A stretch of 12,700 bases of DNA from Candidatus Nanohaloarchaea archaeon (GCA_047617745.1 JBLGBN010000023.1:1-12700), one strand, 5' to 3'. Positions 1,360 to 11,229 are shown, numbered from the stretch's first letter. Program-made: numbers and translations. The notes: generated by a model from the letters alone, not told the origin.

Positions 1360-1659
1360 TTAGTCTCCTCCCACGTATAGGAAGTCAGAATCGTTATCCT
1401 CACCAGTTAGATCGGAATACCTTATGCTTTCACTGGCCTCCGAAATCCCTGTCCTATAACCTTCTAGAAAGCTGTCCGGCAAGTATTCCTCAGTCAGGCT
1501 TATCTCCTTTCCAAGTGTCTGGGAATATATACTGTACTCGATTCTATCCTGGCCAGAAACAATTCGATCAACATCTGCAGAAGTCTTATCTTGAGATTCC
1601 AGTCTACCCATAATTTCGCCGACCTTTCTCAAGGGGTTAACCGATTCTACAGTTTCCAT
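1360..1659 (-). CDS. Hypothetical acidic protein, 99 aa
   Basis: ATG-started ORF that fills the gap between trkA and the photolyase in the same orientation. D/E-rich like its neighbours. TATA-like TATTTAAG on the minus strand about 25 bp upstream of the ATG. No family recognised. Confidence 0.7.
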   Translation of the reverse strand: METVESVNPLRKVGEIMGRLESQDKTSADVDRIVSGQDRIEYSIYSQTLGKEISLTEEYLPDSFLEGYRTGISEASESIRYSDLTGEDNDSDFLYVGGD

Positions 1660-3921: not shown

Positions 3922-4287
3922 ATGAAAATTACAGTTGGAAACGACGGCGAAACACACCAGATCGAAACCGAAGAACCAGCACAGATTTACGGAAAGCAGA
4001 TAGGAGAAGAGTTCGATGGAGGAATCATCGGACTTGAAGGATACACTCTGAAAATTACAGGAGGAACCGACAGACAGGGCTTCCCGATGAGGAAATCCAT
4101 TGAGGGAGCTGAAAGGAAGAAAGTTCTGCTTGAGGGCGGCGCCGGAATTCAGGAAGATGAAGAAGGCGTTAGAAGAAGAAAATCTGTCCGGGGAAACACT
4201 GTCAGCGGAGAGATCGAACAGCTTAACACAAAGGTAGTAGAAGAAGGTTCCAAATCGATCGAAGACATACTGAGCGAAGAAGAGTGA
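3922..4287 (+). CDS. rps6e: 30S ribosomal protein S6e (eS6)
   Basis: GKQIGEEFDG...GYTLKITGGTDRQGFPMR...GVRRRKSVRGNTVSGEIEQLNTKV. Typical position upstream of eIF2gamma. Confidence 0.97.
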   Translation: MKITVGNDGETHQIETEEPAQIYGKQIGEEFDGGIIGLEGYTLKITGGTDRQGFPMRKSIEGAERKKVLLEGGAGIQEDEEGVRRRKSVRGNTVSGEIEQLNTKVVEEGSKSIEDILSEEE

Positions 4288-4592
4288 TGGGCGTAGTCAC
4301 TGAACATTACCTAGAAAGCTTCGCAGAGAAATCCCGGGACTTTAACAGTATCTGGAACCAGTCTCCCGTCAAGGACGCTCTAGAGAGAACTTACAGCTTC
4401 GACTATCCTGAGGGAGAACTAGTAGAGATCGAAGGCAGCGATGAAACATACGAGATAACCGGAAGAAAACCAGTTTATTCAGTTATATTTGACGAAGATG
4501 TTTATACAGCTGACAGGCTCTGGGAAGATCATGACGGAAACCTCCAGAGAGCGCATGATGAGAAAACCATAAGAGGTGACAAAATACAATGA
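4287..4592 (+). CDS. Hypothetical acidic protein (~101 aa; start ATG 4287 or GTG 4284)
   Basis: Overlaps the rps6e stop (GTGATG) and the eIF2gamma start (ATGA). Acidic composition and host-like purine-rich codons. No family recognised. Confidence 0.75.
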   Translation: MGVVTEHYLESFAEKSRDFNSIWNQSPVKDALERTYSFDYPEGELVEIEGSDETYEITGRKPVYSVIFDEDVYTADRLWEDHDGNLQRAHDEKTIRGDKIQ

Positions 4593-5829: not shown

Positions 5830-7320
5830 ATGGTACTTGACCTAATCAGCACAGGCGATCCGCTTGTGCGAGCCGGCCTAGCTCTTCTCATACTTGTTTT
5901 CGGACACCTAGGAGTGAAGGCTTCAAACGTTCTTGCAAGAAGATTCTGGAAGAAGAGAAGCGACAAACTTACCCAGCAGGATTTAAAGGAGAGAAATGAG
6001 GCGCTGAAATACTTCTCATACGCACTTGATTCAGCCATAATTATAATAGCACTTCTCTACCTCAACACCGGTATAAACACAGGTGTAATCGACTCGCTGA
6101 TCCAGTTTGTACCACAGATGATTTCAGCAATCCTAGTAGTGATCCTCGGTTTTCTCGCGATCAACATCACGACAAAGGCTGGAGCGGACTTCATGAAGAC
6201 CATAGGAGTTCACACGTACTTCAGGGAGATAGGGCTTTCACAAAGCGCTCTCAGGCTCTTCGCAGGTATTCTGAAGGCATTCCTGTACCTACTGCTGGTT
6301 CAGATATTCCTCACACAGCTGGGAATAGGAAGCGCTTTCGTGGACGAGCTTGTAAGGGCGTCTTCCTGGGCAGCAGCTTTCCTGATTGCAGGTCTGCTGT
6401 TCTACGGCTTCAAAGATCTCTTCCAGAACTACGCAGCCGGAATATACCTCAAGAACTCCCGTGTAGCTAAACCGGGCGAAGAAATTGATATGGATGGAGA
6501 AAGAGCCGAGATAAGGAACGTATCACTTTTCAGCACGATAACAAACACCGAATCCGGCAGAACAGTTCTCTCACCCAACATAAAGCTGATGAACTCGAAC
6601 CTGTCAGTGAAGAGAACCAAGAGCGATATTGAAACACTGGAAGACATAAAAGACCACTTCATAGCAGAGAAAAAGGAACTAGCAGGAGCCGCATCAATTG
6701 CAATGGCCCTGGAAATATTCGGCTACCGCGCCGAACAGGAAGAAATAGACGAGAAAACAGAAGACACCTCCCCAGAGGAGATCGAGAAAGCAGTCAAAGA
6801 CATCACCAACGGAAACGTGAAGACAGGGTTTGTAGAGCATGAAAAAATAACTGATATCGGATCCGAACTCAAAACCTGGTTCAACGACGGCGGCCTGGTC
6901 CTTGCCAGGATAGACAAAGAAAAACTATTCACAGAAACCGAGATAGAACAACAGGTTCTCTGTGTAGGAGTTGAAGGGAACGAAGTACTGGTGGTTGATC
7001 CAGGAGCAAGAAGAGGAGGCGTATACTATATAGATAAAGAAAGGCTTCTGGAAGCTATCGAGGACACAGAAAAGCCAGGTTACACTGTCATCGCGCCTGA
7101 AGGCACCACAGCATTCTGGAGGATCAAGAATAATCTGCTTTATTCAGATAAAAGCTATTACGAGGAACTCTCCAAAACCCTTGAATCCCGGCTTACACGG
7201 ATAATGAGACAGGGACGTATTCTGAAGGAGAGTATGCCATCTTCCGTCTCCAACTACATGGATAAATGGAGAAAAGAAGGGGACGTCGCAAGGCTCTGGT
7301 CGCCGGAAGACGAGGAGTGA
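5830..7320 (+). CDS. MscS-like membrane protein fused to a C-terminal inactive peptidase C39-like domain
   Basis: About 5 hydrophobic helices, then the MscS TM3/beta-domain pattern (YGFKDLFQNYAAGIYL...KPGEEIDMDGERAEIRNVSLFST...GRTVLSPN). The C-terminal half follows the C39 pattern (AGAASIAMALEIFG..EQEEI...VLCVGVEGNEVLVVDPG) without catalytic Cys/His. Confidence 0.8.
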   Translation: MVLDLISTGDPLVRAGLALLILVFGHLGVKASNVLARRFWKKRSDKLTQQDLKERNEALKYFSYALDSAIIIIALLYLNTGINTGVIDSLIQFVPQMISAILVVILGFLAINITTKAGADFMKTIGVHTYFREIGLSQSALRLFAGILKAFLYLLLVQIFLTQLGIGSAFVDELVRASSWAAAFLIAGLLFYGFKDLFQNYAAGIYLKNSRVAKPGEEIDMDGERAEIRNVSLFSTITNTESGRTVLSPNIKLMNSNLSVKRTKSDIETLEDIKDHFIAEKKELAGAASIAMALEIFGYRAEQEEIDEKTEDTSPEEIEKAVKDITNGNVKTGFVEHEKITDIGSELKTWFNDGGLVLARIDKEKLFTETEIEQQVLCVGVEGNEVLVVDPGARRGGVYYIDKERLLEAIEDTEKPGYTVIAPEGTTAFWRIKNNLLYSDKSYYEELSKTLESRLTRIMRQGRILKESMPSSVSNYMDKWRKEGDVARLWSPEDEE

Positions 7321-7324
7321 TACT

Positions 7325-8134
7325 ATCCGGCTTCTAACAGTCTCAAAAGACGGCGTTGAAGGCTTCGAAGGATTTTTCGAAGAGGTAAAGAACGTAAGCA
7401 TATCCAACGTCTCACCTGAGGTGATAAAAGGTGAGAGAAAAGTAAGCGTCCAGGAAGAGCAGATAGAGGATTACGACGCAGTCTTCACCGAGATACCGCC
7501 TAAAAACGCAGTTTTCGGAAGGGTTTTTCTTGAAACTATCGAGGAAAAAGGAATACCAACCGACAACCCTTCAACAGCCTATTTTACCGCCGCAAAAAAG
7601 AACTACCTTTACTACGTAATGCACAAGCGCAGCATCCCTGCCCCAAACACAGTTTCAGTGGCCGCAGAGAAAGCAGTAAGAGATGTAGAAAACCGTGTGG
7701 AACTACCTCTAGTAGCCAGAAGAATCGAGGAACTTGAGGAAACCGAGAAAAGGAAACTGGAGACCAGCGAGGAAATACAGAGCTTCTCGGAAGGCGTGGA
7801 GTACGAGGAAGATATCCTTCTTTTCCACGAGCTAAATGAAGGAGAGAAGTACCGTTGCCTTGTGATAAACAACGAGATAATATCGCTCAGAGAGGGCTCA
7901 GATGGCTGGAAATTTACGGGAGAGAACCTGAAATACTCGAACCTGTCAGATAAGCAGAAAACCTTAGTCCAGAAAACATGCGACTCAATCGGTCTTACCA
8001 TAGCCGAAATATTGATCAGAGGAGAGGAAATATACGATATAAATCCCAACCCGAACCTGGAACTCTACTCCGAAAAAGCCGGCAAAAACATTTTTTCAGA
8101 AGTAGCAGAAGCCCTGAAAGGTGATATAGAGTGA
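7325..8134 (+). CDS. Degenerate RimK-like ATP-grasp protein (probable start ATC 7325; first canonical start GTG 7421)
   Basis: Colinear with the downstream RimK paralog (EDYDAVF, KKNYLY..SIPAPNT, LPLVARR, KYRCLVI, YDINPNPNL). Similarity extends ~32 codons upstream of GTG 7421. Confidence 0.75.
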   Translation: MRLLTVSKDGVEGFEGFFEEVKNVSISNVSPEVIKGERKVSVQEEQIEDYDAVFTEIPPKNAVFGRVFLETIEEKGIPTDNPSTAYFTAAKKNYLYYVMHKRSIPAPNTVSVAAEKAVRDVENRVELPLVARRIEELEETEKRKLETSEEIQSFSEGVEYEEDILLFHELNEGEKYRCLVINNEIISLREGSDGWKFTGENLKYSNLSDKQKTLVQKTCDSIGLTIAEILIRGEEIYDINPNPNLELYSEKAGKNIFSEVAEALKGDIE

Positions 8135-9012
8135 AGCTGGCTATAATCTACGGTGAAGTATCGACCAAACACCAGATGATAATGGAGAGGGCCGAAGACA
8201 TATTTGACTCTGTTCTAGCTGTACCCGTAGACGGAATAAAGTTCCTCCACACCGGAGATGACCAGAAAGTCCTGTACAAAGATATAGACCTAACAGAATA
8301 CGACGCAGTTTACATCAGAACCGATGACCGCGACATGCTTTTCGCGGAGCACCTGGTAGAGGTCCTAAACGAGGAAGGAGTTGTCACACAGGCTGAGAAC
8401 GACACGTATGCATACGAATCGAACAAGTTCTACAGCATGAAGGTGCTGGCCGAAAACGGGATAAACGTACCTGACAGCGTATACACTCTTTCACCCGAGG
8501 TCGCAGTGAACGCAGCCAAAGAACTCGGATACCCCGTAATAATGAAAACTGTCAAAGGGGTAGGCGGAGAAGGAGTGATGAGAGCGTCAAGCGAAAACGA
8601 GCTGAAACCGGTGATGGATACAATGAAATCGTTTGAGCAGGAGATCTGTCTCCAGGAGTTCAAGGAGCACGGCGGGACAGATACGAGAGTAATTGTTATC
8701 GGGGACGAAGTTATGGCTTACTCCCGGTCCAGCGATGATGACTGGCGATCAAACATCTCAGGAGGCGGTGAACGGGTAGAGGCAGAACTGAGCCAGAAAA
8801 TGAAGGATGTCGCGAGAAAAGCAGCCGGCGTAACAGGGTTCGACATATGCGGTTGTGACGTGATTGAGAGCGATGGAGAACCCTATATACTCGAAATAAA
8901 CGGATCTTTCGGGATAAGTGAGGAAATGAACCGGATAATAGGTAAAGATGTAGTACTACGATTAGTTGAGAGGATGCATGAAAGAGCGATGAAGAAAAAG
9001 AGAAAAGATTAG
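8131..9012 (+). CDS. RimK/LysX-family ATP-grasp alpha-L-glutamate ligase-like protein
   Basis: NKFYSMKVLAENGINVPDS, GYPVIMKTVKGVGGEGV, LQEF, DTRVIVIG, WRSNISGGG, GCDVI and ILEINGSFG. SD AAGGTGA 6 nt before a GTG that overlaps the upstream stop. Confidence 0.9.
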   Translation: MKLAIIYGEVSTKHQMIMERAEDIFDSVLAVPVDGIKFLHTGDDQKVLYKDIDLTEYDAVYIRTDDRDMLFAEHLVEVLNEEGVVTQAENDTYAYESNKFYSMKVLAENGINVPDSVYTLSPEVAVNAAKELGYPVIMKTVKGVGGEGVMRASSENELKPVMDTMKSFEQEICLQEFKEHGGTDTRVIVIGDEVMAYSRSSDDDWRSNISGGGERVEAELSQKMKDVARKAAGVTGFDICGCDVIESDGEPYILEINGSFGISEEMNRIIGKDVVLRLVERMHERAMKKKRKD

Positions 9013-9944
9013 CGCGCCATCTCAATCAACGTTTCCACCACTTTCTCCATCAAAGGCTCCTTCCATGATCTGACATCTTCATCATCATAGAAAACCAGTC
9101 CCGGCTTCGAATTCATCTCAAGGATCCAGGGGCGGCCATTTTCGTCGAAAATGAAGTCGACAGCGTATACCCGATTCCCAAACTGGCTGAACCGGTCCTC
9201 AACTTCATCAACGATTTCAACCGCTCTCTCAGGAATATCTTCAACTTCTATATGATGCATCGATCCTCCTCTTGAGACATTGCTTATCAGCCCTTCGTCA
9301 GGCGTACGGACGAAACTGGCGGCTTTTTCCCCGTTAACAACAATAACCCTGAGATCGTGAACGCCCTCTATATCTAGCTCCGGGATACCAGACTCGGAAT
9401 CAATGAATCTCTGAACCAGTAGATCGTCTTCAGGTTCAAATTCCTTCATACTGTCAATAATTCTAACGCCCTTACCACCGAAATCGTACCTCGGTTTGAG
9501 AACGACGCTGCCGTATTCCTGAAGCATTTCCACAACATTTTCCTCAGACGCCCCCCTTGTCTCAGGCACTCTACCAGGAAATTCATCGTATGTCAGTAGT
9601 TTATCCTTGCATATCTCTTCCAGCTCGTAGCTGTTGAGAACGGGGAGATCATCATGCATTTTCTTCTTGATATCTACAGTTTCATCACCAAACTTGAACT
9701 TGTCAAATATACCATCGATCTCAACGTTTTCGGCCTTACTCCACTCACCGTTTCTATAGCGGTAGGCTTTCTCTAAACCATTGTCTCTATACCAGGAAAA
9801 CTTACCGATCAGTATTTCAGCACCTCTTTCCTCCGCAAGCTGGGAGAAAACAGCGTAACTCGAGTTTATATAATCCTTTTTGAACGGCTTACCTCCGTCC
9901 CAGTCAACCTCACTGTCCCATAAAACGGCTATAGTCGGTCCCAT
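9009..9944 (-). CDS. ATP-grasp peptide ligase (YheC/YheD-like or glutathione synthetase/RimK-like)
   Basis: CKDKLLTY..VPET, VVLKPRYDFGGKGV, LLVQRFID, HDLRVIVVNG, ISNVSRGGS, AVDFIFDENGRPWILEMNSKPG. Start at ATG 9944 (or 9950). Stop overlaps the convergent RimK stop (9009-9012). Confidence 0.88.
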   Translation of the reverse strand: MGPTIAVLWDSEVDWDGGKPFKKDYINSSYAVFSQLAEERGAEILIGKFSWYRDNGLEKAYRYRNGEWSKAENVEIDGIFDKFKFGDETVDIKKKMHDDLPVLNSYELEEICKDKLLTYDEFPGRVPETRGASEENVVEMLQEYGSVVLKPRYDFGGKGVRIIDSMKEFEPEDDLLVQRFIDSESGIPELDIEGVHDLRVIVVNGEKAASFVRTPDEGLISNVSRGGSMHHIEVEDIPERAVEIVDEVEDRFSQFGNRVYAVDFIFDENGRPWILEMNSKPGLVFYDDEDVRSWKEPLMEKVVETLIEMAR

Positions 9945-9996
9945 AATCATTAAACGCCGTCGAATACTTTTCAATATTACTTACAAATACCGTGAC

Positions 9997-11229
9997 ATGA
10001 CCATCCCGAAAGACAGAATTTCCCGGAAGATAGAGGAAAATAAAGAAATTAACCTGGAACTGGGTGACAGTCAGTTAATACAGGATCTCTCCGATACCGT
10101 GGAGGTTTTGCTGGACAAAACACAGTGGTTCAAGAACATACGGATTCAGAACAAGAATAACGAGCTGGAAAGGTTTAGAGAATACAGAGAAAATGGAAAG
10201 AATTACAGACCGAACTTTGAATTCGAAGAGTATCCCCACAAAACCAAGCAACTGAAACAGCTAATCGAAAAATGCAGAAGTGAAACAGAGAAGATAGATG
10301 AAAAACACCTGAAGGAATTTGGCGCAGAAACTATAGGGCCTGAGGATATGAAAGAATTTTTCACGGAGATATTCCGCGAAATAGAGCTCTACATCAAACT
10401 GGCCGACGAGATAGAGAGTGAGCAGAAGTGGCGGGAAATCTCAGAGAAAACCTGGCCGATGATCGAAAAAAGAATAGCCGAAGAATCGACAGAATACCTA
10501 AAAAACAGCGAAAACACTGAACCCAAAGGCGAAGTTTCACCGGAAAGAGTTGCGGAGATGTTCCGGAAAGAGATAGATAGACTCGGGATGGACTACAAGG
10601 TCGAGACCAGAAGAACCGCAGGCTGCTTCAACGCCCCCGAGGAGAAAACGGTCGTTGTTGCCAGAGGTGAAGAAGGCGAGAGGGTTTACTCGGAAGATGA
10701 AGCAAAGATGGTTACGATGCACGAAATCTTCCATGCTGTGAGGGCCTACAATGGATTTAAAGCCGGAGAAAAATCGGGTTTCCCTGAAATAATCGGGCTT
10801 CACACCCCTTTCTACGACAGAGCGGAGGAAGGAGGAGCACTGTACAGAGAAAAAGCAACAGAAACGATGTATACACGAAAAGAGTTCGACTACCATCTCA
10901 GACTTGTCGCGTCATATGAAATATCTGAATCAGACAATTTCAGAGAAGAATTCAGTTCCATAGCCGAAAAACTGATTGATCTCGGTGCGACAGAGGAAAG
11001 AGCTTTCCATCTTCTAGCGAGAAACAGAGAAGCTCTGCGCCACCATATCTACCTCGGCGGATACCATGACTGGAAGGATATAGAGAATAAAGAGAAGATG
11101 CTGGTCGGTAAGGTTAACGAGGAATGGGCAGACAGATTCTGGGAAGAGGCGGAAGCAGGAGGTATGATACAGAAACCTGCGATCGGTTCGGAGAAGCTTT
11201 TCGATTTCACCTTTAAAGATTCAGAGTAA
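9997..11229 (+). CDS. DUF1704 / MATCAP-like (tyrosine/phenylalanine carboxypeptidase domain) zinc metallopeptidase, 410 aa
   Basis: HEIFHAVRAYNG (from 10720) followed ~30 aa later by AEEGGALYRE (QEGLA/EEGLA-like third ligand). Also N-terminal NYRPNFEF and C-terminal HIYLGGY...MLVGKV. Start placed at ATG 9997. Confidence 0.8.
   Translation: MTIPKDRISRKIEENKEINLELGDSQLIQDLSDTVEVLLDKTQWFKNIRIQNKNNELERFREYRENGKNYRPNFEFEEYPHKTKQLKQLIEKCRSETEKIDEKHLKEFGAETIGPEDMKEFFTEIFREIELYIKLADEIESEQKWREISEKTWPMIEKRIAEESTEYLKNSENTEPKGEVSPERVAEMFRKEIDRLGMDYKVETRRTAGCFNAPEEKTVVVARGEEGERVYSEDEAKMVTMHEIFHAVRAYNGFKAGEKSGFPEIIGLHTPFYDRAEEGGALYREKATETMYTRKEFDYHLRLVASYEISESDNFREEFSSIAEKLIDLGATEERAFHLLARNREALRHHIYLGGYHDWKDIENKEKMLVGKVNEEWADRFWEEAEAGGMIQKPAIGSEKLFDFTFKDSE

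Follow-up and report, generated by a model that had tools for sequence, protein, structure and literature searches.

A conserved MscS-papain and RimK-pair gene core with a variable ligase/hydrolase slot in Nanohaloarchaea, a candidate poly-alpha-glutamate writer

Five contiguous genes for ligase-like and peptidase-like proteins are found in a 12,700-nucleotide stretch of a Candidatus Nanohaloarchaea archaeon (GCA_047617745.1, JBLGBN010000023.1:1-12700; here, the window), which is a complete 12.7-kb contig from a genome of 834 kb (88.6% complete). They code for a fusion of an MscS-type channel protein with a papain-fold (C39-like) domain, a degenerate (dead) RimK paralog, an intact (live) RimK, a third ATP-grasp ligase that converges on these three, and a MATCAP/DUF1704-like metallopeptidase divergent from the third ligase. 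A first-pass annotation had read all five as one candidate system for writing and erasing peptides. The open reading frames (ORFs) are real, contiguous and laid out as it described, and they are inserted between eIF2-gamma and PIN/RpoE1/S24e. Close homologs of the proteins of the window bear nanohaloarchaeal names. The family assignments of the annotation (MS_channel, C39-like, RimK, YheCD and MATCAP/DUF1704) were recovered, with C39_2 below its Pfam cut-off and MATCAP just below its own. Comparison with relatives indicated that the conserved unit is three genes and not five, namely the fusion, the dead RimK and the live RimK, in this order (the core), while the third ligase and the peptidase occupy a variable slot after it. 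We give about an even chance to the core being a membrane-tethered poly-alpha-glutamate writer, served by an eraser that can be interchanged.

The three-gene core and its distribution

The fusion was present in 47 of 49 relatives of the same family and in 64 of the 70 genomes of the phylum Nanohalarchaeota (a 65th match was a plain MscS and was left out). In all 64 it is followed contiguously by the dead and the live RimK (39/39 plus 25/25 loci, with RimK cut by the contig end in two of the latter), and nearly all the loci long enough to show it have the core between eIF2-gamma and PIN/RpoE1/S24e. Five of the six genomes without a fusion, all incomplete, were searched for RimK and none was found. 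A second DPANN phylum had the fusion in 25 of 215 genomes and a contiguous core in 23 of the 25 (RimK being broken in one of these and the paralog in another; the remaining two of the 25 are cut by contig ends), at a location outside the eIF2-gamma/S24e superoperon. Such clustering is far beyond chance, and the expectation that these genes stay together in related genomes is borne out for the core. It fails for the five genes as one fixed unit, which are all on one contig in only 14 of 39 loci and are present across contig breaks in three more genomes. Nanohaloarchaea have genomes of ca. 1 Mb and make almost nothing; the core probably does something basic, since 64 of 70 of these small genomes and a second phylum keep it.

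Farther away, a profile search provided ca. 40 full-length representatives of the fusion, the named ones being Woesearchaeota, and a motif scan beyond the phylum, which selects for the catalytic motif, recovered 41 fusion loci, five of them with the core. Core-bearing loci beyond the phylum include records titled Iainarchaeum and Micrarchaeota, and the neighbors in the five were FGase-like or M20 genes, an extra RimK or the third ligase. RimK was found somewhere in the genome in 36 of the 41 genomes. In one Woesearchaeota genome (L210 and L148), rimB followed by rimK converges directly on the MscS-papain fusion.

The fusion protein is made up of the N-terminal helices and beta-domain of MscS (amino acids [aa] 1 to 261), the papain-fold domain (aa ~265 to 426) and a conserved helix (aa 446 to 464). 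Pfam MS_channel_2nd (PF00924) gave 24 bits (cut-off, 20.2) and Peptidase_C39_2 gave 15.6 (cut-off, 24). Matches to MscS (PDB profile, E value of 1e-10, and Foldseek) cover the pore-region helices and the beta-domain, as in known MscS channels, and stop at residue ~261 to 270; the third, alpha/beta cage domain of MscS is replaced here by the peptidase domain and a predicted docking helix. The model of the fusion has a predicted local distance difference test (pLDDT) score of 74. Aligned with VIA-align, the papain domain resembled PeiR (Z of 17.7, root mean square deviation of 2.0 over 140 aligned residues), PCAT1 (Z of 15.7, 2.6 over 133) and the phytochelatin synthase Alr0975 (Z of 14.9). The genome of the window has three other MscS-like genes.

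The live RimK scored 145.6 with TIGR00768 (cut-off, 143.4) and 115.2 with the RimK Pfam family, to which the dead copy gave 23.1, and its best PDB match was E. coli RimK (E value of 3e-25). With PRK10446, the equivalog for the S6-modifying RimK, it reached 100 against 331. The residues R64, K100, K141, D187, R189, R203, R211, N213, D248, E260 and N262 (E. coli numbering) were each present in 79 of 79 orthologs. In the RimK of P. aeruginosa, R64, R189 and N262 contact poly-glutamate (PMC10092738). The 82 orthologs of the dead RimK have kept K100 (79/82) and show D187 and D248 in none, E260 and R64 in two each and N213 in three; judged by these positions, the dead RimK retains the ATP-site Lys, whereas the residues for metal binding and catalysis are gone. 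In a tree of 48 proteins, made with a quick tree search and lacking named CofF and MptN sequences, a single clade (Shimodaira-Hasegawa-like approximate likelihood-ratio test [SH-aLRT] support of 98) held the live, dead and rimB-linked DPANN RimKs, and neither LysX nor E. coli RimK belonged to it. Within it, the dead RimKs of both phyla were also a single clade (SH-aLRT of 99), which suggests that the duplication is old or has moved as a unit.

RimB is a known poly-alpha-glutamate protease (PMC11957791). In RimK loci of Woesearchaeota- and Aenigmarchaeota-like genomes, a RimB with a DTG motif was directly upstream of RimK in 13 of 24 (picked by eye; one is a confirmed retropepsin), and four of five Aenigmarchaeota-like loci had the order rimB, RimK, RimK. 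Neither Pfam nor a DPANN RimB profile found RimB in the genome of the window, at its 88.6% completeness, and among the 70 Nanohalarchaeota, with incomplete genomes, only one had it, so that another eraser would be needed. This sole match (L297, in G069) belongs to an oversized bin, where its contig is short, and may be binning contamination. The Woesearchaeota-type RimKs behind rimB (L187-L210) carry a conserved C-terminal extension of 60 to 70 aa, AbrB-like by eye. Another divergent RimK-like ATP-grasp protein is clustered with a predicted membrane protein of 500 aa in some nanohaloarchaea (L134:4527-5591, L135 and L136:4514-5569).

A three-chain model of the live RimK, the dead paralog and residues 262 to 496 of the fusion scored 0.79, against 0.00 for the best control and 0.00 when RimK was replaced. 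The mark applied was reached by 116 of 157 solved pairs and 2 of 215 mismatched pairs, a calibration that holds only roughly here, three chains and custom alignments being unlike the calibration set. The runs agreed in at least 95% of the contacts, with a partner pLDDT of at least 81. Helix 446-464 is predicted to be wedged between RimK and the paralog, touching the invariant G223 of the latter. Its residues K449, E452 and R460 were found in 89 of 89 core-linked fusions versus 15, 7 and 1 of 35 stand-alone fusions, a contrast that, set against other shared positions, has a p of 0.07, since those decay too. From the model, it is quite probable that the live RimK, the dead paralog and the fusion form a physical complex. 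The conservation of the core across DPANN and the docking of the ligase pair on the fusion in this model lend support to the early suggestion that a module for making and degrading peptides is anchored at a membrane channel.

The papain-fold dyad, the MATCAP-like peptidase and the variable slot

The term pseudopeptidase, applied earlier to the papain-fold domain, suits the window, where Ala285 replaces the catalytic Cys and Gln374 the His, but not the family as a whole. The dyad is intact and the domain looks active in 31 of 63 scorable Nanohalarchaeota (dead in 32; G061 could not be scored, G053 was scored by eye and G015 by its His alone) and in each of the 61 fusion ORFs read from beyond the phylum, 20 of which were found by profile or protein search and not by motif, with one locus counted twice. 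An intact Cys domain in the ancestor seems probable from these counts. There were no dead-domain fusions among six newly read loci of the second phylum, so no third loss was seen there, and a crude dyad pattern suggests a dead domain in ~9 of 40 distant representatives.

The peptidase of the window scored 24.9 bits with the MATCAP Pfam family (PF08014), just below the cut-off of 27 that most members of its clade exceed. Its profile matched human KIAA0895L/MATCAP (7z5g, E value of 6e-11) with both motifs aligned, whereas as a single query it had no match in the PDB. Human MATCAP was also the top Foldseek match of its model (pLDDT of 94.9), with an E value of 1e-4 and a template-modeling (TM) score of 0.4 to 0.5. 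Instead of HExxxH, the zinc motif is HExxH in all 21 members of its clade and in all 6 of clade B, i.e., a one-residue gap with respect to human MATCAP; the third zinc ligand, in the EEG motif, is retained, E278 and G279 being invariant in 32 aligned sequences. The MATCAP proteins of Nanohalarchaeota fall into clade A (unlinked, mostly HExxxH) and the cassette-type clades B and C. A cassette-type gene was found in 29 of the 32 dead-domain genomes (two of the 29 as contig-end fragments) and in 0 of the 31 intact-domain ones. In five genomes it is unlinked to the cassette, and all five have the dead domain. We consider this complementarity suggestive. Several unlinked genes of clades A and C (L069, L070, L120, L121, L122, L129 and L130) have the L10 operon and a large gene downstream of it in their vicinity, and this shared neighborhood suggests an older home of the gene.

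The tree of the cassette, computed with the papain columns removed, disagrees strongly with the tree of the flanking genes over 64 cassette loci (both by FastTree only; G061 was omitted, as were seven genomes lacking flanks from the flanking-gene tree). Because the state of the dyad changes 13 times on the flanking-gene tree and only twice on the cassette tree, each loss with a different MATCAP clade, the alleles seem to have been exchanged between genera as blocks. Counting the 13 changes as independent events (11 of 12 pairs concordant, p of ~0.001) was rejected, the cassette tree giving two origins. The chromosomal site appears to have stayed fixed while genera traded whole alleles at it, e.g., in G048 compared with its genus mates.

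The third ligase is YheCD/glutathione (GSH)-synthase-like (53 bits with YheCD), and both ST and YheCD scored above TTL (PF03133), which gave 36.8 bits with a best stretch that is short (47 aa) and C-terminal; TTLL6/7 matched with an E value of 1e-5 over 60 columns. Its catalytic residues are intact and the equivalents of R64 and R211 of RimK are missing, so it probably uses another acceptor. Strong orthologs were found in 34 of 50 genomes of the family, with one to three tandem copies in the relatives, and also beside intact papain domains. Its look-alike clusters are mostly from Patescibacteria, which is a lead. A metagenome scan with this protein gave no new lineage; 31 loci of the nanohaloarchaeal type repeated the pattern in the same clades and 49 were unrelated RimK-family loci. 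In G040, third-ligase genes on a 1.1-kb contig (L127) are very similar to another genus's copy and may be binning contamination.

The slot takes several forms: the third ligase (one to three copies), alone or together with MATCAP; GCS2, which the third ligase may accompany; a P-loop protein, in some cases joined by AstE/AspA; or a further RimK-like ligase and, divergent from it, a gene of the second MATCAP clade. The further genes found there are amide hydrolases or ligases (AstE/AspA, FGase-like, M20, M24 and GCS2). GCS2, a gamma-glutamyl ligase, together with a GSH-synthase-like ATP-grasp is present in the slot in many intact-domain genomes, and GCS2 was not found in the genome of the window. 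The P-loop protein, of 340 aa, converges on RimK in L046 (7502-8587) and ~17 similar loci and is seen only in intact-domain cassettes; its Atlas look-alikes are DUF1611-related (11 to 16% of members), again a lead, and a PDB profile search gave 0 matches. DUF1611 corresponds to the D-glutamate acetyltransferase DgcN.

Possible function and alternative explanations

We propose that the core works as one membrane-bound complex, in which the C-terminal helix of the fusion is the docking site for a heteromer of live and dead RimK. Going by its family and active-site conservation, the live RimK would join L-glutamate in alpha-linkage using ATP. Glutamate is a quite probable donor, given the family, the rimB-linked sister clade and the RimK papers (PMC11957791 and PMC10092738), and it is reportedly the sole amino acid that two nanohaloarchaeal families can make (PMC9765267). 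The product would most likely be short poly-alpha-glutamate, possibly added on acidic protein tails, and we lean somewhat toward a free polymer over a protein tail. It would be turned over by an interchangeable hydrolase, ancestrally the papain-fold Cys domain on the channel protein itself. In the genome of the window, this domain may serve as scaffold only and the adjacent MATCAP-like zinc carboxypeptidase would do the trimming, as the complementary distribution suggests. That this enzyme acts on the product of the ligases is rather likely, and it may do so as a deglutamylase by analogy with the human TMCP/MATCAP enzymes, which are deglutamylases (PMC10499314). The third ligase could have an accessory role, attaching a different residue or else capping or priming the peptide. 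The purpose is the least certain step and could be a reversible glutamate store and osmotic buffer beside the channel. The most elaborate version, in which an MscS-type channel with RimK/pseudo-RimK and peptidase on its cytoplasmic face couples membrane tension or solute release to polyglutamate turnover, the eraser having been swapped twice from papain-fold to MATCAP (the two classes of enzyme between which eukaryotes divide the trimming of tubulin tails), is speculative and we think it improbable; it would provide prokaryotic MATCAP/DUF1704 proteins with a first function. The link to K+ homeostasis through trkHA that was suggested early on is weak and not supported: these genes are on the other strand, separated from the cassette by S6e and eIF2-gamma, and in the loci of the second phylum the core had no detected trk neighbor.

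Several observations weigh against this proposal. The poly-glutamate contacts S7, R8, S14 and S68 are not conserved in the live RimK. As to the complex, apart from its rough calibration and the weak contrast of the helix residues, the interface columns overall were not above background conservation (p of 0.85, 0.14 and 0.45), and the RimK-paralog part of the model may be recall, because RimK oligomers have already been solved. In 35 Woesearchaeota- or Aenigmarchaeota-like loci, the fusion has no adjoining RimK pair (in one of them a lone RimK is next to it), which means that linkage is not needed for it to work. No MATCAP was found with the dead domain of G044 (99% complete) or of G045, which has an M24 peptidase in the slot (in G047, the third miss, the contig ends), and 9 of 31 intact-domain genomes have an unlinked clade A paralog. 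Two losses of the dyad are too few to test, and with only two independent origins the eraser swap stays below significance. Finally, the record titles of the second phylum do not indicate brines, which makes a halophile-specific osmotic role doubtful.

The best of the alternatives, although we place it well below even odds, is that the main job is the reversible C-terminal glutamylation of proteins, a tail code on, e.g., S6e and RpoE1 of the same superoperon that MATCAP would trim. Bacterial RimK does modify a ribosomal protein ending in EE (PMC11957051), and the core is placed within this superoperon in nearly all the nanohalarchaeal loci that are long enough to tell. Going by internal runs, 13.2 of the 877 proteins called in the genome of the window would be expected to end in EE and 1.5 in EEE; the counts were 40 and 9, enrichments of 3-fold and 6-fold in this one genome without a control genome. 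Several of these are ribosomal and RNA polymerase proteins, S6e and RpoE1 included, and S6e has a C-terminal acidic run in most relatives. However, salt-in proteomes commonly contain disordered tails of acidic residues, the second phylum has its core outside the superoperon, and the channel would be left unexplained.

Somewhat less probable is that an insertion hot spot houses the third ligase and the MATCAP-like peptidase as a two-gene module of their own, and that the match with the dead C39 domain reflects shared descent of one cassette allele; this is compatible with the proposed role of the core and not exclusive of it. The two origins on the cassette tree, the movement of alleles between genera as blocks, the presence of the third ligase beside intact domains and the peptidase being unlinked in five genomes all fit this explanation. 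Against it, each of the two losses brought in a MATCAP clade of its own, next to a ligase that also differs between them but with an unchanged divergent arrangement, and the five unlinked cassette-type copies occur only in dead-domain genomes, with 0 of 31 in the intact-domain ones.

Less likely again is that the product is a defined peptide of small size, either similar to glutathione or with mixed gamma/alpha-glutamyl links, which the papain domain would process and the channel would let out, to serve as a metabolite or as a signal to the host. It would account for the GCS2 and GSH-synthase-like pair in the slot, for the resemblance of the papain domain to Alr0975 and to the exporter-fused C39 domain of PCAT1, and for a third ligase that lacks the polymer-binding arginines of RimK and comes in up to three copies. 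But the window's genome has yielded no GCS2, the top folds (PeiR, CD lyase, C39 and phytochelatin synthase) do not single out one activity, and the invariant part is the RimK pair and not the accessory ligases.

The remaining alternative, an ordinary biosynthetic ligase (LysX/ArgX, CofF or MptN) with its pathway elsewhere, is very improbable: the live RimK does score with MptN (118.8 versus 350), LysX (108.4 versus 275.6) and CofF (76.4 versus 300), always below threshold, but LysW and CofE were not found in the genome of the window (88.6% complete) while positive controls were detected, with methanopterin genes outside this search, and the true LysX of two relatives scored 309.6, has its own operon and branches apart from the live RimK. 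Two nanohaloarchaeal genomes (L132 and L133) have LysX beside apparent Lys/Arg pathway genes, which is unusual for the lineage.

In its working, the proposed system is like RimK-RimB(-RimA) of Pseudomonas and E. coli, and in its layout it resembles RloABC of P. aeruginosa, but it is a member of neither. We know of no bacterial S6 target in archaea. With the former (PMC11957791 and PMC10092738) it shares a RimK-family ligase with the same catalytic and R64/R189/N262 residues, and the pairing of the ligase with a glutamate-removing protease, DPANN relatives of this RimK being still behind rimB. Here, in contrast, RimB is nearly absent, the dead RimK is an invariant partner, the ligase is apparently tethered to an MscS-type protein, and the eraser would be papain-fold or MATCAP. 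RloABC also combines a membrane protein bearing an inactive papain-superfamily (transglutaminase-like) domain with a RimK-like ATP-grasp and a polyglutamate-cutting protease, and is genetically linked to hypo-osmotic stress (PMC11957051). Unlike the core, it has a seven-transmembrane protein with a periplasmic domain, a secreted retropepsin and no pseudo-ligase, and its dead domain is not known live in relatives. The membrane part of our fusion is MscS-like, and no retropepsin was found in the genome of the window.

Vasohibin, a Cys protease of tubulin, is papain/transglutaminase-like. The enzymes of tubulin tails (TTL/TTLL and MATCAP/TMCP1-2) also pair an ATP-grasp writer with a MATCAP-family carboxypeptidase or deglutamylase, and there vasohibin and MATCAP do the same job (PMC10499314). 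The archaeal peptidase differs in its HExxH motif and in its low TM scores to human MATCAP, and a tubulin substrate is not implied.

RimK-like ligases beside peptidases and membrane proteins were reportedly among the ATP-grasp amidoligase neighborhoods predicted by Iyer et al. in 2009, a study that most DPANN genomes postdate. We found no description of an MscS-papain/RimK-pair system in the literature (supplements and subscription papers were outside the scope of the search), and the main text of the Nanohaloarchaeota literature examined names none of MscS, ATP-grasp, C39 or rimK. If the proposal is correct, a ligase/pseudo-ligase pair docked on an MscS-type protein would have no earlier description that we could find, and prokaryotic MATCAP/DUF1704 peptidases would gain a candidate function as deglutamylases. 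It would also be a natural experiment in which RimB, the papain-fold domain, MATCAP, AstE, FGase-like and M20 appear to substitute for each other as erasers for one writer.

Features of the locus and other observations

Table 1. Features of the cassette, in positions of the window
Feature	Position	Strand	Basis
MscS-papain fusion (soluble part, residues 262-496)	5830..7320	+	Pfam, PDB profile, model
Degenerate RimK paralog (pseudo-enzyme), probable ATC start	7325..8134	+	Residue states in 82 orthologs
Intact RimK-family ATP-grasp ligase, GTG start	8131..9012	+	TIGR00768, best PDB match E. coli RimK
Third ATP-grasp ligase, YheCD/GSH-synthase-like, start 9950 or 9944	9009..9950	-	Pfam, profiles, residues
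A+T-rich gap of 46 bp between divergent third ligase and peptidase, putative shared promoter	9951..9996		Sequence
MATCAP/DUF1704-family gluzincin metallopeptidase, HEIFH (242-246) and EEG (277-279)	9997..11229	+	Profile, model

The coordinates of the five genes and of the gap between the divergent pair are listed in Table 1. The MATCAP-like peptidase starts at the ATG at 9997 and not at the TTG at 9880, and the database protein has 410 aa. The dead RimK lacks an in-frame ATG, GTG or TTG at the position where its orthologs start, and the ATC at 7325 is its most likely start. In relatives of the same genus, an overlapping ATG/TTG is found a few codons earlier, and the window is one base shorter there. 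An assembly error was ruled out, as the contigs of four of four runs compared, one of which may be the window's own source, have no indel at this point. Starts with only ATC or ATT were seen in 4 of the 39 dead-RimK orthologs that could be anchored (25 more could not), the window included. Special control on the operon by a non-ATG start is unsupported, a few other genes having Ile-codon starts too. In the window (7317-7330), L048, L049 and L052, ATC or ATT is the sole plausible start and has a GGTGA-like site ahead, and in L052 it comes directly after two in-frame stops.

Elsewhere in the window there are two short acidic ORFs, at 1360-1659 (minus strand) and 4284-4592 (plus strand), with no convincing family match. 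The eIF2-gamma frame of L043 (9429-12530) is 1034 codons long, possibly by intein insertion, and that of L061 is similarly long but contains a run of N. In two other families (L098, L100, L102-L105, L108, L109 and L111), trkH and S6e are separated by a second, plain MscS gene, a short way upstream of the cassette.

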